NCBI GenBank assembly: GCA_040390725.1
Contig: JAZJXT010000006.1
Coordinates: 367 to 64,366, forward strand
Length of the DNA: 64,000 bases
Direction: 5' to 3'
Origin: Patescibacteria group bacterium
Lineage (GTDB): Bacteria; Patescibacteriota; Minisyncoccia; Phycocordibacterales; UBA9973
The first letter of the stretch is position 1, and every line of letters starts with the position of its first letter. The position numbers and the translations under genes were made by a program. This document shows, one piece after another, positions 5,646-61,399 of this stretch. Under the pieces are notes generated by a model. That model was given only the letters and a program-made list of their open reading frames with translations, ran no database searches and had not been told where the DNA came from.

Positions 5646-5744
5646 AAGACATTATTTTTACTAAAACTCGCCTACTCTTTAAAGGATTTTCGGCTACTCC
5701 TTATTTATTTGTCAAAAAACTTTACCAAGCTCAAAAAAGAACAA

Positions 5745-22373: not shown

Positions 22374-22526
22374 AAATAATTAAATTGGGATCTGCCCTGT
22401 TAATATCACGCTCTTTTTCTTTAACCCTTTAAAAACTAAAGAATTAAAGGAGAAAAGCGGATTAATCAAGACCGTATTCCCTTGCCTGCCATACTAGCAA
22501 ATTAGAAATAAATAGTCAAATATTTG

Positions 22527-22923
22527 TGGAACTGACGAGAATTGAACTCGTGTGCAAAAGGTTGTTGCAGAGAAATCGACATGCTTGGCTCATTTTTTTG
22601 TTTAAATTTTAAAATTCTTAAATGAGCAAAATATTTTAAAATCGAGTTCTAAGTTTTCGTGAAATATGCGAACAAATATTTCCTTATCCCGATAATATTA
22701 TGCCTCGTCTCATATATCGGAAGTCTATGAGGGAGACACCAGTTTGGCTTACGCGAAAGCTGGAGCGAAAGCAAAATCATTCATACCGAAGTATGGAGAA
22801 GCTTTTGCAAACGCCTTAGAAGTCAATTTTGCAATTAACATTTGAGCGAATTTTTTCGAGATTACGCTCATGCTCGGCATGCATCAATAGCAAAAGGCCT
22901 TTTGTCTATGCCTTGCAGTCCCC
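22527..22923 (-). ncRNA. ssrA: tmRNA (SsrA)
   Basis: Minus-strand 5' GGGGACUG pairs with 3' CAGUUCC + A (the acceptor stem has a G3-U wobble, the alanine identity element). T-arm acgag-TTCAATT-ctcgt. Internal tag-like reading frame ...gat ttt gct ttc gct cca gct ttc gcg TAA (..DFAFAPAFA*). Immediately adjacent to smpB. Confidence 0.7.
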
Positions 22924-46812: not shown

Positions 46813-46904
46813 CCTCACCCCCTTAATCCCCTCTCCGGAGTACCAGAGAGGGGAAACCAAATTCAAACACAAAAAAGCACCCATTTCTGAGTGCTTTTTT
46901 GTTT
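46813..46904 (+). repeat. R5 inverted-repeat end (cctcacccc-N5-cccctctcc-loop-gagagggg) plus R4 terminator repeat copy 1
   Basis: Inverted partner at 47617-47637. Direct repeat of aaaccaaat.caaacacaaaaaagcacccatttctgagtgcttttttgttt at 47638-47690. Confidence 0.6.
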
Positions 46905-46974
46905 GCTTGTTGAAAAATTTTCCACAGATATATTGCTTTTATTGTTAAAAAGTGTATAGTAATAATGTACTCGT

Positions 46975-47058
46975 GAACCGTAAGGTTTATTCGGCTAAGG
47001 AATTCCATACGCCGCAAGCGAGTACTACAAAGACGCCGTCGCTATGACGGCTTTTTTG
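46975..47058 (+). ncRNA. R3c: partial, degenerate copy of the R3 element, convergent with the 3' end of paralog X2, with its own terminator (gccgtcgctatgacggctttttt)
   Basis: cCGTAAGgtttaTTCGGCTAAGGAatTCC aligns to the cGTAAGccccTTATCGGCTAAGGAtcTTCC of R3a. Confidence 0.4.
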
Positions 47059-47455
47059 TTTGCTTTTCTTTCTTTTTCCAAACGCTCAAGAATGTAATAT
47101 TTCCATCACCTATCCTGCGCAAAACAACAGAAACAGTGGCTCCACTTTTTCCGGCGATTTCTTTTAATTCCCAAATCTCAAAATATTTACCGAGCGGTTT
47201 TGAATACTGCTGTTTTTTATAATCAAAAATACTTTTTGCGTTTTTAATTACAGGAATCACCAACGGAAGCAACCCCATTTTAAATTGTTGCTCTTTAATA
47301 TTTCTTTGTTTGCCGTGGCTATCATATCTTAAATGATAAAATCCTTTAGAATTAAAAATAATCTCTTCATTTAAAATAGGGCAATGCACTTTGCCAATGG
47401 TTTTATACCAAGCCCCCTTTTCTTTCAAAAATTCTTGAAACGATTGTTTTTCCAC
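47042..47455 (-). CDS. hypothetical protein, paralog family X (second copy)
   Basis: See 13132-13578. Confidence 0.5.
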   Translation of the reverse strand: MEKQSFQEFLKEKGAWYKTIGKVHCPILNEEIIFNSKGFYHLRYDSHGKQRNIKEQQFKMGLLPLVIPVIKNAKSIFDYKKQQYSKPLGKYFEIWELKEIAGKSGATVSVVLRRIGDGNITFLSVWKKKEKQTKKPS

Positions 47456-47496
47456 AAAATAGATTATAGCATAATAAGAAAAATATTTTATAAAAC

Positions 47497-47593
47497 AAAA
47501 AATCCACCTTTCGGTGGGTTCTTTGTTATGCCTGGCTTCAAGCTTAGGAATACCTTAGCTGAACGGGGCTTACGCCCACAGGCACACTTATAA
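47497..47593 (-). ncRNA. R3b: full copy of the R3 structured element, co-directional with and immediately upstream of paralog X2, ending in the terminator cccaccgaaaggtgg + U-run
   Basis: ~80% identity to 13027-13129 including the gggcgtaagcccc hairpin. Confidence 0.5.
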
Positions 47594-47616
47594 TCTAACA
47601 TAAAATTTTTAATTTT

Positions 47617-47690
47617 GGAGAGGGGTCAGGGGTGAGGAAAAACCAAATACAAACACAAAAAAGCACCCATTTCTGAGTGCTTTTTTGTTT
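47617..47690 (+). repeat. R5 inverted-repeat end (ggagaggggtcaggggtgagg) plus R4 terminator repeat copy 2
   Basis: Reverse complement of the first half of 46813-46853; R4 ~95% identical to 46854-46904. Confidence 0.6.
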
Positions 47691-47736
47691 CAATTTATCC
47701 GGAATTGATAACCGCTATAACTTAACAAACTATAGA

Positions 47737-51687: not shown

Positions 51688-52506
51688 TTAGATATTATAT
51701 TTTGACCACCTCTTCTCCCCTGTTTTTTTTAACAAATTGTCCTTTACCATAGAGATGAGTTCGCGCTGTAAAGTTTTCTCTCCGCATGTCCTTAAGACAC
51801 CTTGGGCGTTATCTTTGATGTCCTTTATTGTCGCTCCACCTTTGTCCTTTATAATTTTTATTATCTCTTCATGGCGTTGTTTTTTTAGATTATTGAAAGC
51901 CTCTCCCCCCGCCCTCTCCAAAGTAGAGGGAGCTTTAATTTTGTCCGATATCGCTTTCATTAAAGTGTGTCCTTTTTGAAGACCAAAATTTATAGATTGA
52001 TGTCCGTTAGAAACTTCTTTCACCCTCTCCTTGATAAGGAGAGGGTTGGGGTGAGGTGAATTTTGAAATTTATTTTCTACTTCTTCTTCCCCAAAAAAAT
52101 CCTCCAATAAAACAGAATTTCTTTGCGTATCCAACACCTCTGAATTTAAAAATTCTTTCATTTTTAAAAACTCTCTTTTTAAAATAGTAGAATTCATTTC
52201 TGAAATTAAATTCACGGTCAAAGCTATGTCCAATAAAGATATTATGGCAGAAATTTTTTGATCTAAATGTGTATGTAAGGAATCTGTGTCCGATATAATT
52301 TCCGTACCTAATGTCCTTAATTTATTACGTAATGGCTCTTCTTTGTCCATTATGTCCGTTACCATATAAAGAGCTATTATAAGCTTATTTGTTTTTGTGT
52401 AGGACATCAACATTCCTCCTGTATTCCCATGTCTCCTGAGCACTGAAAGAGCTGATGTCGCATAGCTGTCTTTGAGATTTTTATTTTCATCTAACATGTT
52501 GTCCAT
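51688..52506 (-). CDS. hypothetical protein carrying in-frame R5-like palindromic segments
   Basis: ORF track. ccctctccttgataaggagagggttggggtgagg at 52023-52057 lies inside the ORF and encodes ..HPNPLLIKER.. Confidence 0.35.
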   Translation of the reverse strand: MDNMLDENKNLKDSYATSALSVLRRHGNTGGMLMSYTKTNKLIIALYMVTDIMDKEEPLRNKLRTLGTEIISDTDSLHTHLDQKISAIISLLDIALTVNLISEMNSTILKREFLKMKEFLNSEVLDTQRNSVLLEDFFGEEEVENKFQNSPHPNPLLIKERVKEVSNGHQSINFGLQKGHTLMKAISDKIKAPSTLERAGGEAFNNLKKQRHEEIIKIIKDKGGATIKDIKDNAQGVLRTCGEKTLQRELISMVKDNLLKKTGEKRWSKYNI

Positions 52507-52538: not shown

Positions 52539-52650
52539 TTCCCCTCTTGAGGGGTGGACTTTGTACTCAAAGGACGGGGTGGAGGTTTTCGGGTTAATAA
52601 ATTCTCCACCTCCCCCCGACAGTAGTCGGGGTACTCCTCAAGAGGAGAAT
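52539..52650 (+). repeat. R6c: third copy of the structured repeat
   Basis: ttcccctcttgaggggtggactttgtactcaaaggacggggtggagg...ccacctccccccgacagtagtcggggtactcctcaagaggagaat. Confidence 0.55.
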
Positions 52651-55295: not shown

Positions 55296-56333
55296 ATGCA
55301 GCAAAAAAAAGCAAAAAAAGAAGACAAGACAAGCAATAATGATTTGGAAGAAACACTAAAATCAATCCAAACAAAATTCGGCGAAGGCTCTATTATTAAA
55401 ATGGGTGACACTCCAAAAGTAGACTTGAATGTCATACCGACAGGTTCCCTTGGTTTGGATATGGCTCTAGGCGTCGGTGGAATACCACGTGGCAGAATCA
55501 TCGAAGTTTTCGGACCGGAATCATCCGGTAAAACTACCCTAGCTTCACACATCGTCGCTGAAGCGCAAAAACTCGGAGGTATCTGCGCGTACATCGATGC
55601 CGAACACGCAATGGATCCGGAATATACCAAAAAACTCGGAGTAAAAATAAATGACCTTCTCGTTTCCCAGCCTGACACCGGCGAGCAAGCATTAGAAATA
55701 GTTGAGAGCCTCGTGCGCTCCGGAAAAATTGATGTTATCGTCATAGACTCCGTCGCAGCATTGACTCCAAAAGACGAAATCGAGGGCGATATGGGCGCGT
55801 ATCACGTGGGCAAGCAGGCCCGCCTGATGTCCCAAGCTCTCCGTAAACTTACCGCAATAGTAGCCAAATCAAAAACCGTCGTCATTTTCATAAACCAAAT
55901 CCGTATGCAAATAGGCGTGATGTTCGGCAATCCAGAAACGACACCGGGAGGCAAGGCTTTGAAATTCTACACTTCTATCCGCCTCGACATCCGCAAAATA
56001 GCGCAAATTAAAAAAGGCGAAGACGTCGTCGGCTCCCGCACTCGCGTGAAAGTCGTAAAAAATAAAGTCGCCGCTCCTTTCAAGCAAACAGAATTCGACA
56101 TCATTTACAATGAAGGTATTTCCAAAGAAGGAGAAATAATAGCATTGGGTGAGAAATTCAAAATCGTAGAAAAATCCGGCAATTCATATTTCTATATGCC
56201 AGCCGGTGAAGGCAAGGAAAAAGTAAAGCTCGGCGTAGGCTACGACAACACTCGCACATTCTTAAAAGAAAATTCCAAAATCGCTGAACAAATCTTGAAA
56301 GAAATCAGAAAGAAGTTTGCAGAGGAGGTTTAA
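55296..56333 (+). CDS. recA: recombinase RecA
   Basis: [18 protein letters not shown] and the conserved L1/L2 regions. Confidence 0.9.
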
Positions 56334-56336
56334 TAC

Positions 56337-56386
56337 CCTCACCTAGCCTCACCCCTTAACCCCCTCTCCAGAGTACTAGAGAGGGG
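56337..56386 (+). repeat. R5 inverted-repeat end bounding the hicBA cassette (left)
   Basis: cctcacctagcctcacccc-ttaa-ccccctctcc-agagtactaga-gagagggg. Confidence 0.55.
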
Positions 56387-56519
56387 TAAAATACTTGCAT
56401 ACTTTTTTGGCTATGATATAATATACTCACTAAATGTGAAAGGCATCCTATATGGGTGCTTTTCTTGTTTTTAAATCATTAAAGCTTGCATTACAGTATA
56501 GATTTGATATTATCAAGAT

Positions 56520-56768
56520 ATGTCCAAAGAATTCTCTTATAAAATAGAATACGAGGTTGATAAGAAATCCGGTCAAGTAACGGCGACTATTCCTGAGCTT
56601 AATCACATTTCTTCTTTTGGTGATTCATTTGCCGAAGCGGAAGCCAATGTTCGTGAAGCATCATTGGGGTATTTGGAGTTGCTAGTTAAAAAACAAAAAA
56701 GAATCCCTGCTCCTGCATTTCACACTGATGGAACGTATTTAAAACTTTTTATTCCAAAGTTTGCTTAA
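56520..56768 (+). CDS. hicB: HicB-family antitoxin
   Basis: UPF0150/HicB-like fold signature (YKIEYEVDKKSGQVTATIPELNHISSFGDSFAEAEANVREA); overlaps hicA by 8 nt. Confidence 0.55.
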   Translation: MSKEFSYKIEYEVDKKSGQVTATIPELNHISSFGDSFAEAEANVREASLGYLELLVKKQKRIPAPAFHTDGTYLKLFIPKFA

Positions 56769-56994
56769 AAAAATGAGCAAATTAAATCCTTTATCAGCTA
56801 GAAAGGTTATTCAGAAACTCAAAAAAATAGGTTTTATTAAAACGCATCAGCGCGGAAGTCATTTGTATTTAGAAAACGGTGATAAGGTCGTAACAATTCC
56901 CGTTCACGGTTCAAAGGATATTCCCGTAGGTACTCTTTACAACATTGTCGTTAAACAAGCCGAACTTTCCATAAAAGAATTTCAGAATTTATAA
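56761..56994 (+). CDS. hicA: HicA-family mRNA interferase toxin
   Basis: KLKKIGFIKTHQRGSHLYLENGDKVVTIPVHGSKDIPVGTLYNIVKQA matches the HicA/YcfA pattern. Confidence 0.6.
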   Translation: MLKKMSKLNPLSARKVIQKLKKIGFIKTHQRGSHLYLENGDKVVTIPVHGSKDIPVGTLYNIVVKQAELSIKEFQNL

Positions 56995-57004
56995 TTTTTT
57001 TATT

Positions 57005-57051
57005 CCTCCCCTCTCTAAAATTTTTATTTTGGAGAGGGGTCGGGGGTGAGG
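57005..57051 (+). repeat. R5 inverted-repeat end bounding the hicBA cassette (right)
   Basis: cccctctc-loop-ggagagggg tcggggg tgagg; reverse complement of the left end core. Confidence 0.55.
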
Positions 57052-57090
57052 AAATTTGATTTTATTTTAAAATTTGATAACATACTAAAT

Positions 57091-57672
57091 ATGGCAACAT
57101 TAGAATACAGTGAAATACGCGGAGGAAAAATCATCTTACATGATGACGAGCCTTGTGAAGTTATCGACTCGCACGTCGCTCGCACCCAACAACGCAAACC
57201 TCAAAACCAGGTCAAGCTTAAAAGTCTTATTTCCGGCAAGGTCTTCCCTGCTACTTATCACGTTTCCGACAAAGCTGACGAAGCGGAAATCGAAAAACGT
57301 GAAGTGAAATTCCTTTATCACAACAAGGGCGAATATTGGTTCTGTGATCCTACTGATCCAAAAAACAGATTTAAATTAAACGAAGCGTTGCTCGGCAACA
57401 CTGTAAAATTCTTGAAAGATAATGAAAACGTCACCGCGCTAGTCTGGACGACAGAAGACGATGAGGAAAAAACTATCGGACTCAAGCTCCCTATCAAAAT
57501 GCAATTCAAAGTAAAAGAAGCTCCTCCTGCTGTCCGCGGAGACACTTCCAAGGGTGGCAATAAATTCATCGTCCTTGAAAATGGCTCCTCTATCACAGTG
57601 CCTATGTTTATAAACGAAGGTGACACTGTCATCATAAATACCGAAACCGGCGACTACGTCGAACGAGCCTAA
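57091..57672 (+). CDS. efp: elongation factor P (start moved to the internal ATG at 57091)
   Basis: Three-domain EF-P pattern, including the KPGKG-like loop region. Confidence 0.8.
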   Translation: MATLEYSEIRGGKIILHDDEPCEVIDSHVARTQQRKPQNQVKLKSLISGKVFPATYHVSDKADEAEIEKREVKFLYHNKGEYWFCDPTDPKNRFKLNEALLGNTVKFLKDNENVTALVWTTEDDEEKTIGLKLPIKMQFKVKEAPPAVRGDTSKGGNKFIVLENGSSITVPMFINEGDTVIINTETGDYVERA

Positions 57673-57731
57673 AAAATAAGTAAAAAGAAAGGACACCATT
57701 GGTGTCCTTTAAAATTGTTTTTAGTCTTTTG

Positions 57732-58232
57732 CTATTTAATCCGCCGATGAAGCGACTTTTGGAGATTAGCTTCCTCTGCTTCATGCCTTGCTTTTTCAAT
57801 GGCAATATTTAAATGTAAAATCTTACCATGATCATTTTTATATTGGATTTTTGTAAACTCCTTTAATTTTTCACAGTAAACAGAATTATTTATGTATTTA
57901 GGCAACATATTAATCCCGATGCTAAAAACCATAAGGCGTTCACGTCTATTAAAGTTTTTAATTTTAATAAAAGTATCGAGCATTTTAATTAAAACATTTT
58001 CTTCAGAAGACACCATAGTATAATGGTATTTTCCGTTCTGAAAAAATTCAATCAAAGGACCAGATACGCCCTTTTTATCTTCTGCCATGGTTTGGAATTT
58101 CGAAAATATTTCTTGGATTTTTTCTTCGGGTATTGGCACCTCTGTTTTTTTATCAAGATACTCTCTTAATATATTAACCAAACGCCTTTTTCCTGAAATT
58201 ACTATTTCGTATTGAAATAATATTTTTCGCAC
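57732..58232 (-). CDS. hypothetical protein
   Basis: ORF track. Confidence 0.3.
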   Translation of the reverse strand: MRKILFQYEIVISGKRRLVNILREYLDKKTEVPIPEEKIQEIFSKFQTMAEDKKGVSGPLIEFFQNGKYHYTMVSSEENVLIKMLDTFIKIKNFNRRERLMVFSIGINMLPKYINNSVYCEKLKEFTKIQYKNDHGKILHLNIAIEKARHEAEEANLQKSLHRRIK

Positions 58233-58365: not shown

Positions 58366-59931
58366 TTGACAAAATTAAATAAAAATTTTCATCACCAAAA
58401 TTTCGTAATCATGAAATCAATTTTTTCTTTCGCATGGGCTTTAGCTCTCCTTTTGTTGGTAGGAAAAACCAACGCACAAATTTCAAATTTTATTGTTAAC
58501 CAGGACACAATTTGTGCTGGAGACACTGTTTTTGTTACCAACCTGTCAACAGGTTCAAACCTGAAAAGTAACTGGTACAGCGCTAACGGCTCTCCTCAGA
58601 CATGGGAAGGAATAACAATCCCTATGGGTGTTACCTACTGGAATCCCGGTACGTATCAAATTGAACTGATCGTGGAAGACACGGTGTCGCATATTCAAAG
58701 TACGCCGTTTATTGTTACTATTTATGTGTATCCAATACCGCAGACATTTACTACCACGCCAAGTGGAAACATTTACCAAAATTGTAACGGCAATCCCGTG
58801 ACAGTTACAGCCAACACCGCCGGAGGAGTAAATTACCTTTGGAGACACAATGGTAATACTGTTGACACAAATGCTACGGCAAACCTAAGTGGTACAGGAG
58901 CGTATTTTGTGTACGCTACTAACATTTACGGTTGTCGAAATAGCCAAGGTTGGTATGTCTATGTGAATCCAAATCCAGCACTAAACATAAGCCTGGGAGT
59001 TAATGGAAACAATAATGACACTGTTTCTATTTGCAACAACCCGCTAAATACAAACTATGCGTATGTAAACTGGAGCAGTCCGATAAGTATTCTTCCTTCG
59101 TTCCAATGGAATGATGGATCAAATGGTAATAACTTAGCTGTTACCCAATCCGGAAACTACTGGGCCATACTAACAGACTTAAATACTGGATGTAGTGATA
59201 CGGACAGTGTTTATGTTTATTTACATCAACTGCCTGTACCGGTAATTACATCACCTATGCTAGAGTTTTGCGAAGGAGCAGGCACAGTCTTACTCGTAGC
59301 CACTCACTATCCTTCCTATTCATGGAGCAATAGTGCAAATACTCAAAGCACTTATGTGAATTGGGGAGGTGTCTTTACTGTAACAGTTACCGATACCTTT
59401 GGTTGCACAGGAACAGCACTGAGTGTACAAACTATTGTATGGCCAAACCCAGTTGCCGAAATAGAAACAATTGATTGTGAAATGGCTGCAGGGCTGATCA
59501 CACTTGGACCGGGAGATTCCATTCAATGGTCATTAAACGGAATACCTATTCCCCAATCCAACAGTCAATTCTTGTTGGCAACTGGGACAGGTTTCTATAC
59601 AGTGACAGTAACAAATTCACACGGTTGCACAGGCACATCATTGCCCATGCCTATGAATTGCACTGAAACTGGCGTAGACTTACTTGCCCAAATGAAAGGC
59701 ATAAATGTTTATCCAAACCCAGTTGTAAATCAACTGACGGTTAAATTTGCAAACCAAAATACCAAATACAAAGTCCAAATCGTGGACATGGTTGGTAAAA
59801 GTTTGGCAGAGGCTGAAGGAACCGATGAAGTAATCATTCCGCGAGGAAACATTACTCCGGGTTATTATATTGTCAAAATCCGTGACAGTGAAAATAGCCA
59901 AGAAAAAACTGCACAGATTATCGTGCAGTAA
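58366..59931 (+). CDS. secreted protein with a Bacteroidota-type T9SS C-terminal sorting domain
   Basis: Signal peptide ending ...KTNAQ. C-terminus VYPNPVVNQLTVKF...KVQIVDMVGKSL...GYYIVKIRD...IIVQ (Por_Secre_tail pattern). Noticeably higher GC than the flanks. Confidence 0.55.
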   Translation: MTKLNKNFHHQNFVIMKSIFSFAWALALLLLVGKTNAQISNFIVNQDTICAGDTVFVTNLSTGSNLKSNWYSANGSPQTWEGITIPMGVTYWNPGTYQIELIVEDTVSHIQSTPFIVTIYVYPIPQTFTTTPSGNIYQNCNGNPVTVTANTAGGVNYLWRHNGNTVDTNATANLSGTGAYFVYATNIYGCRNSQGWYVYVNPNPALNISLGVNGNNNDTVSICNNPLNTNYAYVNWSSPISILPSFQWNDGSNGNNLAVTQSGNYWAILTDLNTGCSDTDSVYVYLHQLPVPVITSPMLEFCEGAGTVLLVATHYPSYSWSNSANTQSTYVNWGGVFTVTVTDTFGCTGTALSVQTIVWPNPVAEIETIDCEMAAGLITLGPGDSIQWSLNGIPIPQSNSQFLLATGTGFYTVTVTNSHGCTGTSLPMPMNCTETGVDLLAQMKGINVYPNPVVNQLTVKFANQNTKYKVQIVDMVGKSLAEAEGTDEVIIPRGNITPGYYIVKIRDSENSQEKTAQIIVQ

Positions 59932-60049: not shown

Positions 60050-61399
60050 ATGCTAGACTTGATAGATAGGCGGAGTAACCGCTATTATTTGTACCTTGTA
60101 ATCAACAATTCAATATATCTTATGAAGAATTCAGTATTTTCCGTATGGGCTACTGCCCTTTTCTTTTTGTTGGCTTTTAATAAAACCAATGCGCAATTTT
60201 CCTGCATGTCTAATATCCATGTCAGTACTGGAGTCAGCTTTGTCGTTGACTGTAGCAATCAAAAAGTTGTTACTTTCACTACAGACAGCTTGTCCAGAGC
60301 TTACTCATGGATGATAGGCAGTACTCCATTGGGAGTTGCTATCTCCATGACGGTGACTATCACTACCCCGGGCGATTACAACATCACAGCAACCGACACT
60401 ATGAATAGTTGGTGCTATGACGTTGTTCAGATTCACGCACTGCCACGTCCTGTGACAGTGGTGAATGTGAATGTTCCTGGATCAACGGTTATTGGGAACA
60501 CTACCTTTGTCTGTTCAAACCCAAACGGCTATTCCCTGAATGGAAACACCACCGGTGTCAGCTATTACTGGGATAACGGACCAGGTCCATTGATCAGGCA
60601 TGTTTTCCAAGGAGGAGTTTACATCTTTACAGGTGTAGATAGCTACGGATGCACAACATCCGATACCGTAAACTTGGTTATCTGGCAAAGCCCGACTCCT
60701 GCAATAATTGGAAACGTTCCAGTGTGCTCTGGGTCGAGCTTGGTGCTGTCGGTTGATAGTCCTACCATCTACTCTAGTGTTAATTGGAGTGGTGTCGGCA
60801 CATCAGGCAACAGTCCCACTGCATCGGTGAACACAACAATCAATTACGCGAGTTATATCGTGGATATGACTGCAACTGATGCAAATGGATGCTCTGCAAC
60901 AACCACTGCCCTTGTGACCGTAAAGCCTACTCCGCTGACACCTACGGTATTTAGTACCAGCCCTGTGGCATGCAAAATGTATGACATACACGGTGGTAAT
61001 TTATACCAATGGATGATGGGTTCAGGAGCAGGTTCGATAATTCCGGGAGCAACGAGTTCTGTTTATTATCCTACCAGCCCAAATTATTACTGGGTGGTAG
61101 AAACAGATATCGTTTCTGGGTGTGGTAGCGCATCTCTGCCATTATGGTCAGATTGCAACATTGCGTCTGGTGTGGATGACGAACTGGATAAAAAAGATAA
61201 ACTGAAAATTTCTTCAGAAGGAATAAGCATAGAATTTGCTGATGCCGAAATACACACTGTTAAAGTGATTGACGGTATTGGGCAAGTTGTAGCAACTGAA
61301 ACTTCCTCAACTGAAATTTTGTTTCGGAACATCAAACCAGGAATTTATTTCCTGCGTGTTGATGAGAAGCCAGCGGTAAAAATCGCTGTACGACAATAA
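60050..61399 (+). CDS. second secreted protein with a T9SS-type C-terminal sorting domain
   Basis: Signal peptide ...KTNAQ. C-terminus ISIEFADAEIHTVKVIDGIGQVV...GIYFLRVDEKPAVKIAVRQ. GC-richer. Confidence 0.5.
   Translation: MLDLIDRRSNRYYLYLVINNSIYLMKNSVFSVWATALFFLLAFNKTNAQFSCMSNIHVSTGVSFVVDCSNQKVVTFTTDSLSRAYSWMIGSTPLGVAISMTVTITTPGDYNITATDTMNSWCYDVVQIHALPRPVTVVNVNVPGSTVIGNTTFVCSNPNGYSLNGNTTGVSYYWDNGPGPLIRHVFQGGVYIFTGVDSYGCTTSDTVNLVIWQSPTPAIIGNVPVCSGSSLVLSVDSPTIYSSVNWSGVGTSGNSPTASVNTTINYASYIVDMTATDANGCSATTTALVTVKPTPLTPTVFSTSPVACKMYDIHGGNLYQWMMGSGAGSIIPGATSSVYYPTSPNYYWVVETDIVSGCGSASLPLWSDCNIASGVDDELDKKDKLKISSEGISIEFADAEIHTVKVIDGIGQVVATETSSTEILFRNIKPGIYFLRVDEKPAVKIAVRQ

Follow-up and report, generated by a model that had tools for sequence, protein, structure and literature searches.

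The hicB-hicA gene pair between recA and efp in a CPR genome (35% G+C) lies in a cassette whose two ends, read by their sequence, are inverted copies of a known repeat, the intrastrand triplex motif (TM). This inverted pair also occurs in related CPR genomes, where it forms the ends of a ∼470-bp element whose usual single gene encodes a DUF559 protein. We give an even chance to the explanation that hicBA is captured cargo, held either in a non-autonomous derivative of this TM-DUF559 element with swapped cargo or in the element's footprint or hot spot. The cargo-swapped reading is suggested because this inverted pair forms the ends of the DUF559 element that recurs at recA-efp. As described in an earlier note on this DNA, the ∼715-bp spacer between recA (55296-56333) and efp (57091-57672) in the window, i.e. 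the whole 64-kb stretch that was analyzed, contains hicB and hicA as an intact operon, with inverted G/C-rich repeats on either side (Table 1). The cassette consists of hicBA with its own promoter (56486-56994) and ∼110 nt of filler, enclosed by inverted TM copies of ∼45 nt each (56347-56386 and 57005-57051).

Table 1. Positions of the hic cassette, its flanks, and the other TM pairs in the window
Feature	Position	Strand	Description
recA	55296..56333	+	Conserved left flank; Pfam RecA 5e-135
Left end	56336..56386	+	TM unit read on bottom strand, third block facing outward
Filler unique to cassette	56395..56474	+	Promoter-like TTGCAT 56395-56400, 16-nt spacer, TATAAT 56417-56422, then terminator
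Intrinsic terminator inside hic cassette	56438-56464 + T-run	+	Terminator scan, 11 pairs; directly after TATAAT
Putative hicB promoter	56486..56513	+	TTGCAT, 16-nt spacer, TATTAT, 6 nt to ATG; read from sequence
hicB, predicted antitoxin	56520..56768	+	82 aa, short form; Pfam HicB_lk_antitox 3e-5
hicA, predicted toxin	56773..56994	+	73 aa; Pfam HicA_toxin
Right end	57005..57051	+	TM unit on top strand
efp promoter (TTGATTTTAT...) and efp	57055..57672	+	Conserved right flank; Pfam EFP domains; ATG 57091
X2, second cassette with same ends	46813..47692	.	Left unit 46813-46853, right half unit 47618-47637
X2 cargo, 137-aa ORF	47042-47455	-	No Pfam or NCBIfam match
Third pair, in frame inside conserved gene	51900..52058	.	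Arms 51900-51935 and 52023-52058

HicA matches the Pfam HicA_toxin profile (PF07927) from end to end (positions 1-58 of 58; 2.4e-16, 60 bits versus a cut-off of 27) and carries the ...QRGSHLYL... motif. The Pfam match of HicB is weak and lies below the curated cut-off; a protein 100% identical to it (P0001) is named HicB family antitoxin by NCBI, and its 297 homologues are mainly from Patescibacteria. The two genes are co-oriented, with a gap of 4 nt between the end of hicB and the hicA ATG, and are also paired in loci L102-L109. The most likely start of hicA is the ATG at 56773, which gives a protein of 73 aa that matches its homologues. With this HicA domain, typical of small dsRBD-like RNases that have a conserved His, and an adjacent, co-oriented hicB, the pair can be placed among HicAB type II toxin-antitoxin systems, with toxin and antitoxin roles that are predicted. 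Because the −10 box ends 6 nt before the ATG, a layout common to the hicB homologues in L102 and L103, the hicB mRNA is probably leaderless. The filler (56395-56474) is not matched by blastn in any of the fetched loci and may serve as a recA terminator; the scan that calls the terminator within it also calls one at 57688-57710, downstream of efp.

The nearest hicBA modules, with HicB identities of 83-89%, are located in other contexts and have no TM-type repeats. The hicBA genes of the window are 81% identical to those of L102 over 494 nt and, because this homology breaks off 15 nt before the hicB ATG (at 56505) and at the hicA stop, the hic cassette is by this comparison a mosaic. The idea that hicBA travels together with the repeats was rejected, 8 homologous loci being without them.

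An empty site, which the earlier note had suggested looking for in related genomes, was found. The ftsK-gdB-recA-efp synteny is kept in 80 relatives, with hicBA at the site in none (0/80), and the spacers of the closest relatives measure 75-141 bp (141 bp in L078 and 107 bp in L002, both with 93% recA identity). Judged against these relatives, the hicBA segment is an insertion specific to its lineage, placed between recA and efp, two conserved housekeeping genes. The window's recA shares 84-93% identity with its counterparts in Ca. Nomurabacteria/Paceibacterota MAGs. Across relatives, recA and efp show 70-93% conservation, and the efp promoter motif is conserved immediately outside the repeat in L013, L002, L022, and L018. 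The finding that the earlier note had named as speaking against its cassette, the same repeats at recA-efp without hicBA, was also made: the site holds DUF559 between TM-type repeats in L013/L081, L087/88, L090, L095, and L101, a solo TM unit in L083, and a compact form in L021. In other CPR genomes, the repeats at recA-efp are solo, a compact palindrome, MITE-like or, most commonly, enclose DUF559. When metagenomes were scanned with the hairpin alone, 7 of the 21 fetched loci (6 distinct contigs) lay between recA and efp. On a recA+efp+ftsK tree, the element is patchy at this site, and the window groups with genomes that have none there. Because these tree neighbours are without the element, we infer rather than see that a DUF559 element was formerly present in the lineage of the window.

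TM repeats of E. coli (TM_ECO) are its BoxC repeats (Holder et al. 2015, PMC4666352; Hoyne et al. 2000; Bachellier et al. 1999). A pyrimidine and a purine block form a hairpin, and the G/T block that comes third is a mirror image of the purine block, with G*G:C, T*A:T, and A*A:T as the triads; only for TM_ECO has triplex formation been demonstrated, in vitro (PMC4666352). The ends of the hic and X2 type are copies of this motif, as assessed by block order and sequence, both of which agree: CCCTCTCC, loop, GGAGAGGG, linker, GGGTGAGG is nearly the same sequence in the window and in TM_ECO/BoxC. In the right end, the pyrimidine block CCCCTCTC (57008-57015) is followed by a stem and loop extended by A/T, the purine block GGAGAGGGG (57031-57039), a TC linker, and the third block GGGGGTGAGG (57042-57051), with a fold energy of -13.8 kcal/mol (z = -5.1). 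It follows the triplex block rule, the mirror of its purine block being GGGGAGAGG and its third block GGGGTGAGG. The left end has the same triplex block order on the opposite strand. After the recA stop (56331-56333) come a degenerate additional copy of the third block (CCCTCACC, 56336-56343), the complement of the third block (CCTCACCCC, 56347-56355), TTAA, the pyrimidine block CCCCCTCTCC (56360-56369), the loop AGAGTACTA, and the purine block GAGAGGGG (56379-56386); the energy of this hairpin is -8.4 kcal/mol (z = -2.4). Aligning the ends, another suggestion of the earlier note, gave from 16 ends in six genomes the consensus CCTCACCCC-N2-4-CCCCTCTCC-AGAGTACT-AGAGAGGGG-AAAA. A form with a G-A mismatch (CCCCTCGCC/GGAGAGGGG) is found in the right ends of L013, L086, and L093, and recurs in TM_ECO of E. 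coli.

The concern that the repeats might be generic terminators was justified in one respect, since they are a generic, dispersed TM/BoxC motif, of which single copies and copies in frame inside a gene are also found, but not in the other. As intrinsic terminators they were rejected because no T-run follows, and the terminator scan calls neither end. A known RNA family was also rejected, Rfam searches by gathering threshold and by E-value returning nothing credible. We found no direct repeat that could be a target-site duplication outside the ends of the hic cassette or of 12 other elements. A local alignment of the sequences after the left and right ends is not significant, since 129 of 500 shuffles do just as well.

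Within the 64-kb window, CCCCTCTC occurs 7 times versus 0.68 expected (0/100 shuffles reach 7), each time within the hic and X2 ends, and there are 5 hairpins with a pyrimidine stem versus 0.01 expected. Inverted TM pairs number three. The earlier note had assigned the hic and X2 repeats to one family, and the repeats that bracket X2 (46813-47637) are indeed 89% (left-left) and 92% (right-right) identical to the hic ends, each over 38 nt; the X2 right end is only half a unit, because its pyrimidine block has been lost. The 137-aa ORF of X2 has no match in Pfam or NCBIfam and no homologue among the fetched loci. X2 also displays a 57-nt direct repeat with a terminator (46848-46904 and 47634-47690, 95% identity), which was rejected as a target-site duplication, as it consists of terminator copies, one inside and one outside. 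In the third pair, the left arm is a variant TM unit and the right arm an exact one (pyrimidine-block hairpin 52023-52045, CCTCACCCC at 52048-52056). Because this pair sits in frame within a minus-strand ORF (51688-52506), TM units occur apart from cassette borders. A homologue of this ORF was found in 65/80 loci, and in L021 its linker regions contain other G/C-rich units. A tblastn search (E <= 10) identified no DUF559 gene or remnant in the window.

In CPR, TM pairs enclose 0.4-1.2 kb of genes, and the same ends bound varied cargo. DUF559 is the cargo in L013/L081, L085, L086, L087, L090, L093, L095, L096, and L101, a PLP enzyme in L096, methyltransferase fragments in L098, and hicBA and the X2 ORF in the window, whereas L087a (114 bp, MITE-like) and L083 (a 50-nt solo unit) have no cargo. 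With the ends of L098 and L085, the hic ends share 88-94% identity, the right end being 90-94% identical to the L098 right ends, which border methyltransferase cargo, and 88% to that of L085. Differing cassettes in different genomes have in common ∼55 nt of left- and right-specific end sequence, some of these nucleotides lying within the hairpins. These ends are also found at unrelated sites, between genes for arginase and DUF192 in L098 and between genes for an MBL-fold hydrolase and ribosomal protein S1 in L085, and in tandem arrays (L087, L096, and L098). Cargo orientation varies, DUF559 being reversed in L085 and hicBA lying opposite to the usual DUF559. No transposase or integrase adjoins any of the ∼30 copies examined, and a search for a cognate transposase with matching ends, covering the window and ∼1 Mb of related loci, found none. 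The cassette-like character proposed in the earlier note stands in a descriptive sense, the borders matching the inverted pair and the same ends bounding other cargo elsewhere. Movement of a cargo unit was not directly observed because no cassette was seen at two different sites.

The association between DUF559 and TM extends beyond CPR. In the recA-anchored loci, 6/6 DUF559 genes are flanked by inverted repeats (Mann-Whitney p = 1.7e-5 versus 345 control ORFs). Among plasmid and chromid DUF559 genes of diverse taxonomy, 7-8 of 12 have TM-type inverted repeats and 4 of 12 have no flanking repeats, and in IMG/VR loci of 60-73% G+C, DUF559 is surrounded by TM-type terminal inverted repeats of 55-80 nt. 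TM-flanked DUF559 genes were found in CPR, cyanobacteria, Deinococcus, and alpha- and betaproteobacteria, and TM copies are also present in many CPR loci and contigs from high-G+C organisms. The arrangement is partial at ycjD of E. coli, where TM_ECO no. 9 lies 167 bp beyond the gene and a TM-like hairpin overlaps its stop codon. A phage origin of the repeats was rejected, the hairpin pattern having 0 matches in IMG/VR. The many members of the DUF559/YcjD family are predicted nucleases to which no role has been assigned. The product of the flanked gene matches PF04480 at 2.5e-32, and DUF559 proteins match PDB 3HRL. DUF559 falls within the Vsr/I-Bth0305I nuclease clade (PMC3424549), and the Vsr protein VsrA of Caulobacter triggers the SOS response (PMC12907096). 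By this homology, DUF559 (YcjD/Vsr-like, PD-(D/E)XK) proteins are predicted to be nucleases, and we propose that they act on TM DNA. In open-access text, we found no publication that connects DUF559 with TM repeats, and the association appears not to have been described before.

If hicBA is captured cargo of a TM-DUF559 element, a DUF559 nuclease acting in cis or in trans would cut at the ends, or the hairpin/triplex structure would itself break. Repair by recombination, either between TM ends or by way of the conserved flanks, could then copy, swap or delete the content between the ends, and slippage between the 8-9-nt stem repeats might generate the solo forms. Once in place, hicBA may guard the cassette against loss. 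More tentatively, and at somewhat less than an even chance, we suggest that TM-DUF559 is an unrecognised class of selfish element, widespread in bacteria and the source of BoxC/TM, with solo and compact copies as its footprints or targets, which may capture genes like hicBA.

An instability hot spot without any dedicated nuclease or cassette mobility is an unlikely alternative, though one that deserves weight. In this model, which is that of Holder et al. 2015, TM units would have dispersed independently, their structure would stall replication, and hicBA would have entered by illegitimate recombination. Rearrangement-prone TM loci in E. coli, whose inverted pairs share one variable region (PMC4666352), are consistent with it, as are the units found single and in frame inside ORF 51688-52506, the hicBA relatives without repeats, and the absence of both a target-site duplication and, in the window, a DUF559 gene. 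However, it leaves unexplained why ∼55 nt of left and right end sequence are shared across differing cargo and genomes and why DUF559 dominates as cargo across phyla.

We give little credence to the model of the earlier note, a non-autonomous TIR transposon resembling MICs/MITEs, with hicBA as passenger and a transposase acting in trans from elsewhere. Like these, the cassettes have true terminal inverted repeats (∼45 nt) around passenger genes with no transposase, a short empty form (L087a), and tandem arrays (L087, L096, and L098), and their occurrence at recA-efp is phylogenetically patchy. Unlike these, they show no target-site duplication, no parent IS whose ends match was found in the window or the related loci, none of the ∼30 copies adjoins a transposase or integrase, and, in contrast to IS ends, the TM motif of the ends is retained across phyla, from CPR to E. 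coli. As the nearest hicBA modules are also without such ends, a TIR-bounded mini-transposon with hicBA as its own cargo was not borne out. Flank exchange as in the minimal mobile elements of Neisseria, whereby DNA uptake would be followed by homologous recombination in recA and efp and the repeats merely carried along, is improbable as well. The alternative content of recA-efp in many genomes, its patchy distribution on the tree, and the 70-93% conservation of both flanks would suit it, but the same ends border cassettes at unrelated sites (L098 and L085) and none of the 80 relatives carries hicBA at recA-efp as a possible donor. We find it very hard to believe that the ends act in RNA, pairing in a recA-hicBA-efp transcript to give a stem for processing or insulation, comparable to the RNase III stems in intervening sequences of rRNA, with mobility irrelevant: an outer stem of 9-10 bp and hairpins can form from them (the compact form of L021 has z = -9.8), but the units occur in both orientations, within coding sequence, and beside different neighbours across phyla, match no Rfam family, and enclose a genuine terminator (56438-56464).

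The proposed TM-DUF559 element resembles several known systems in part. With TM_ECO/BoxC it shares the G-A mismatch variant, inverted pairs, and association with variable regions. On the other hand, E. coli pairs are compact (∼16-30 nt apart), with no gene cargo or mobility gene reported, whereas CPR pairs enclose genes, typically DUF559, and units are also found in frame within a gene. As in REP/REPIN-RAYT, a gene that is present once and encodes an enzyme that cleaves DNA (here predicted) lies between inverted short palindromic repeats that are elsewhere dispersed as solo units or doublets, and the repeat sequence family shifts together with the gene copy; on this analogy, solo and compact TM copies would be footprints or targets of the DUF559 element. 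The likeness is one of layout only, since the flanked gene encodes a Vsr-like PD-(D/E)XK protein and not a Y1 HUH (IS200/IS605-like) transposase, and the repeat is of triplex type, has no GTAG tag, and is acted on by the enzyme only in our proposal. Integron cassettes (attC) are also small, mostly single-gene units in arrays, with imperfect palindromic ends resembling recombination sites, and toxin-antitoxin modules and small nucleases are their typical cargo, as here. Unlike integrons, there is no attI, orientation is mixed, the sites are ordinary intergenic spacers, and each cassette has two inverted ends instead of one attC of R''-L''/L'-R' structure. An integron was rejected because no integrase adjoins any array and the ends are inverted duplicates; the varying orientation was also counted against it. 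Vsr-like (EDxHD) homing endonucleases, free-standing or carried by introns, such as I-Bth0305I, from the same clade as DUF559 (PMC3424549), offer a parallel for the proposed route, in which recombination after a break would copy the element into an empty allele. They differ in that no intron or intein is host here, the target would be a dispersed repeat and not a unique gene, and homing is hypothetical. Finally, Rickettsia palindromic elements (RPEs) are likewise palindromic repeats in frame in protein genes, as in ORF 51688-52506, but their sequence is unrelated and they are not known as borders of gene cassettes.

CPR genomes have few classical mobile elements, and the hic cassette illustrates how small accessory modules, here a predicted toxin-antitoxin pair, can slot between the core genes of these streamlined genomes. 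It is also a warning for annotation, as G/C-rich islands of this kind, set in CPR genomes rich in A/T, should be taken neither for terminators nor for IS ends. Catalogues of BoxC/TM repeats go back to the 1990s. They were tied to genome instability in 2015, with no accompanying mobility function reported (PMC4666352). The physical coupling of TM and DUF559 from CPR to E. coli suggests that the repeats may be ends, targets or footprints of a selfish element made of a nuclease and its repeats, and it therefore provides a testable explanation for both. If true, an undescribed selfish element would stand behind an old and unexplained repeat family.

The window belongs to a Candidatus Nomurabacteria/Paceibacterota (CPR) genome. 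Its recA, 84–93% identical to that of such MAGs, is separated from efp by a hicB-hicA operon bracketed by inverted repeats, exactly as an earlier note had claimed. An empty site, which that note had advised looking for in relatives, was sought by scanning one genome per species with recA as anchor. Synteny of ftsK, a Glucodextran_B-domain gene, recA and efp is kept in essentially all of the resulting 80 loci, and hicA/hicB are absent from every one. The nearest relatives have recA-efp spacers of 141 bp (L078, recA 93% identical), 107 bp (L002, 93%) and 75 bp (L001, 90%). In the window and in L013, another of these loci, the conserved efp promoter (TTGATTTTAT...TCTGCTAGTATAA) starts directly outside the right repeat. 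Because relatives have short spacers without hicBA and the promoter abuts this repeat, the segment from 3 nt past the recA stop codon to the efp promoter is lineage-specific, and the hicBA segment is an insertion. In a recA+efp+ftsK tree, the window groups with element-lacking genomes and element-bearing lineages are scattered amid element-free sisters; the site has therefore certainly undergone repeated gain or loss.

In about a dozen relatives (L003, L008, L014, L017, L021, L044, L056, L057, L062, L066, L101) efp is inverted with respect to recA, so its orientation is polymorphic in the clade, and some (L008, L021) have G/C-rich palindromes on the side of efp away from recA. The recA 3′ flank is a general landing or retention site for such repeats, since in many relatives recA is immediately followed by other G/C-rich palindromic elements that are genome-specific. 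Synteny stops after efp, where three window genes have no counterpart among the 80 loci; one, just after efp in this CPR genome, encodes 521 aa including a T9SS type A sorting domain (TIGR04183, 2.8e-9). The region may have been acquired horizontally or represent a variable island.

Repeat bracketing is far above chance. CCCCTCTC occurs seven times in the window (0.68 expected), always in ends of the hic cassette or of X2, a second segment whose cargo is a 137-aa ORF, and pyrimidine-stem hairpins occur five times (0.01 expected). The ends of both cassettes belong to one family, as previously proposed (89% identity between left ends, 92% between right ends); the inversion extends to the asymmetric loop, so the ends are true inverted copies. 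An extra degenerate copy, CCCTCACC, lies upstream of the left hic end. Widening the suggested alignment to 16 ends from six genomes yielded the consensus CCTCACCCC-N2-4-CCCCTCTCC-AGAGTACT-AGAGAGGGG-AAAA. That the repeats are generic terminators, which the earlier note had considered, is ruled out by the lack of a T-run 3′ of either end; the intrinsic terminator called by a terminator scan lies inside the cassette.

The window units are not IS ends; their sequence identifies them as TM, an intrastrand triplex motif rich in G/C (Holder et al. 2015, PMC4666352). In E. coli, TM is known as TM_ECO or BoxC, e.g. CCCTCTCCC-TGT-GGGAGAGGG-CCG-GGGTGAGGG (PMC4666352). The window units have the same three blocks, the third mirroring the purine block (GGGGAGAGG vs GGGGTGAGG), and a G-A mismatch variant is common to CPR right ends (CCCCTCGCC/GGAGAGGGG) and E. 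coli (type "A mm"). TM is found in >260 genomes, and E. coli K-12 has five inverted pairs of it; the surroundings of TM loci show elevated rearrangement, and no transposase or integrase lies near them (PMC4666352). The hic cassette is a new variant built upon this known repeat.

Repeat units also occur in frame within a conserved gene, whose homologue in L021 (2115-2972) has other G/C-rich units at the same linkers; across genomes, similar linker positions of this gene hold different repeat families, as with Rickettsia palindromic elements. This gene, upstream of ftsK, is without Pfam family and has homologues in 65 of the 80 relatives. A further G/C-rich palindrome cluster, of a different sequence family, lies just upstream of ftsK. 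At X2, a 57-nt direct repeat (95% identical) with a bidirectional terminator has one copy just inside the left end and the other just outside the right end, and may stem from an array junction or recombinational insertion. The X2 interior also contains a structured, stem-closed stretch (GTACTCG...CGAGTAC) ending in a clean terminator, which looks like a small RNA gene; an Rfam search of it gave no match.

Coordinates of features (window positions unless a locus is named)
Feature	Position	Strand	Details
23S rRNA 5′ end	1-183	minus	Rfam gathering threshold
DUF805b RNA motif	5669-5702	minus	Rfam gathering threshold
tmRNA	22524-22922	minus	Rfam gathering threshold
X2 57-nt repeat	46848-46904, 47634-47690		
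X2 structured stretch	46955-47060		terminator 47035-47051 + T-run
ORF with in-frame units	51688-52506	minus	
Cluster upstream of ftsK	52540-52640		CCCCTCTTGAGGGG; pair GGGGTGGAGG ... CTCCACCTCCCC; hairpin CCCCGAC...GTCGGGG
recA 3′ end	56333		
Left end	56347-56386		CCTCACCCC-TTAA-CCCCCTCTCC-AGAGTACTA-GAGAGGGG
Promoter-like site and terminator	56395-56474		terminator scan, 56438-56464
hicB	56520-56768		weak Pfam match; 100% identical database protein named HicB
hicA	56773-56994		Pfam 2.4e-16
Right end	57008-57051		CCCCTCTC-(A/T stem-loop)-GGAGAGGGG-TC-GGGGGTGAGG
efp start	57091		
Genes after efp	57732-58232, 58366-59931, 60050-61399		T9SS domain, 58366-59931
Post-recA palindromic elements	L078:7040-7135; L007:1280-1370; L009:7069-7134; L018:3587-3640; L059:7046-7108		
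DUF559-TM examples	L013:10472-10786; L021:10071-10358; L113:2200-2770		L113, E. coli ycjD
DUF559-TM examples			L116, L120, L128 (IMG/VR); L160 (Sinorhizobium); L159/L165 (Deinococcus)

The 297 HicB homologues are for the most part from Patescibacteria. The nearest hicBA modules (HicB 83–89% identical) neighbour HepT/MNT, a diversity-generating retroelement or housekeeping genes, and inspection of their flanks revealed TM-type repeats around none. hicBA and the repeats are not coupled. In L102, homology to the window operon (81% nucleotide identity across 494 nt) begins 15 nt upstream of the hicB ATG and ends at the hicA stop. Since it is confined to hicBA, the cassette is a mosaic: after the left TM end come ~110 nt of filler that is unique and includes a promoter-like site as well as a terminator, then hicBA under its own promoter, and last the right TM end. 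The hicBA promoter (TTGCAT-16-TATTAT-6-ATG), arranged alike in homologues, is probably leaderless. The strong promoter-like site inside the left end (TTGCAT-16-TATAAT) has its intrinsic terminator within ~15 nt, which would give a ~45-nt transcript; this stretch, unmatched among the fetched loci, may be a relic, specify a tiny RNA or serve as the recA terminator. In five loci (L107, L109-L112), close hicBA homologues (HicB 81% identity) lie directly downstream of a diversity-generating retroelement; all five contain a reverse transcriptase, and two of them, L107 and L109, also contain bAvd (accessory variability determinant) genes.

The same ends enclose other cargoes or none. In the recA-efp spacer of L013, the inverted pair encloses a 118-aa DUF559 gene (PF04480, 2.5e-32), and that of L021 holds a gene-free compact nested palindrome (~150 nt, fold z = -9.8). 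A metagenome scan using the left hairpin alone returned 21 loci, all with CCTCACCCC preceding the hairpin and seven again at recA-efp (six distinct contigs, L087 and L088 being one). At this site, L081, L087/L088, L090, L095 and L101 carry DUF559 and L083 a 50-nt solo unit. These, with L013 and L021, have the same repeats without hicBA between recA and efp, an arrangement the earlier note had taken as counting against its proposal. The usual cargo is a single DUF559 gene (~115 aa); a PLP-dependent enzyme (L096), SAM-methyltransferase fragments (L098) and, in the window, hicBA and the X2 ORF are also found, as are an empty, MITE-like pair of 114 bp (L087a) and tandem arrays (L087, L090, L096, L098). 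The hic ends match L098 and L085 most closely (88–94% identity), and the match extends ~10 nt internal to the hairpins despite different cargo. No DUF559 gene was found in the 64-kb window.

DUF559 genes are associated with such repeats at other sites and far outside this clade. At a second CPR site, another syntenic DUF559 gene (L003, L013, L020, L021, L078) lies between G/C-rich repeats, inverted or palindromic, that belong to other sequence families and have the same architecture. When flanking inverted repeats were scored against 345 control ORFs, every one of the six DUF559 genes from the recA-anchored loci exceeded the 95th percentile (p = 1.7e-5). IMG/VR contigs (60–73% G+C) with full-length DUF559 have 55–80-nt terminal inverted repeats made up of a pyrimidine-stem hairpin, a second hairpin co-varying between arms and a G-rich third block; the canonical form, CCCTC(G/T)CCC...GGGAGAGG...GGGTGAGGG, stands on both sides in L116. 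Among 12 taxonomically diverse plasmid/chromid DUF559 genes, 7–8 have TM-type inverted flanks (Sinorhizobium, 114 nt; Pseudanabaena; two Deinococcus species; Sphingomonas; Neisseria gonorrhoeae; Synechocystis; marginally Picosynechococcus) and four have no flanking repeats. E. coli K-12 has the DUF559 gene ycjD, with TM_ECO no. 9 situated 167 bp past it. Between this motif and a TM-like hairpin that overlaps the stop codon of the gene there is a duplicated ycjD 3′ end; we estimate the chance of one among 23 motifs lying so near a given gene at ~0.004. In some lineages the fabI-sapF site holds ycjD instead of eefRABCD (PMC12817139). DUF559 genes with inverted TM-type repeats occur in CPR, Cyanobacteria, Deinococcota and Alpha-/Betaproteobacteria, while E. 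coli K-12 has them on only one side of the gene; the layout is like that of RAYT with REPs. DUF559 belongs to the Vsr/I-Bth0305I nuclease clade (PMC3424549) and matches PDB 3HRL, and a Caulobacter DUF559 protein damages DNA (PMC12907096). We found no paper in the searchable literature linking DUF559 to TM-type repeats.

We favour, at roughly even confidence, the reading that the hicBA cassette derives from a selfish element that TM ends and DUF559 would together constitute; some alternatives are compatible with it. Breaks at the ends would be made by the nuclease or result from the structure of the DNA, and their repair, by recombination between ends or via conserved flanks, would copy, swap or delete the interior. 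On one strand the two hairpins both read pyrimidine-loop-purine, so slippage between their 8-9-nt stems could give the solo form, and would yield exactly the unit seen in L083. A more tentative alternative is that recA-efp is an instability hot spot only, to which the repeats came independently. The earlier note proposed a TIR-bounded mini-element; its insertion and inverted ends hold, but no target-site duplication was found at the hic cassette and relatives of hicBA lack the repeats, so movement by a transposase is unlikely. Homologous exchange through recA and efp, resembling that of Neisseria minimal mobile elements, appears equally improbable, and a role as an RNA processing stem is very improbable indeed. 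If the cassette does derive from a TM-DUF559 element, hicBA would have replaced the nuclease gene, or been captured in its place, and as an addiction module would counter cassette loss. The broader coupling of DUF559 with TM is the part of these findings most worth following up.
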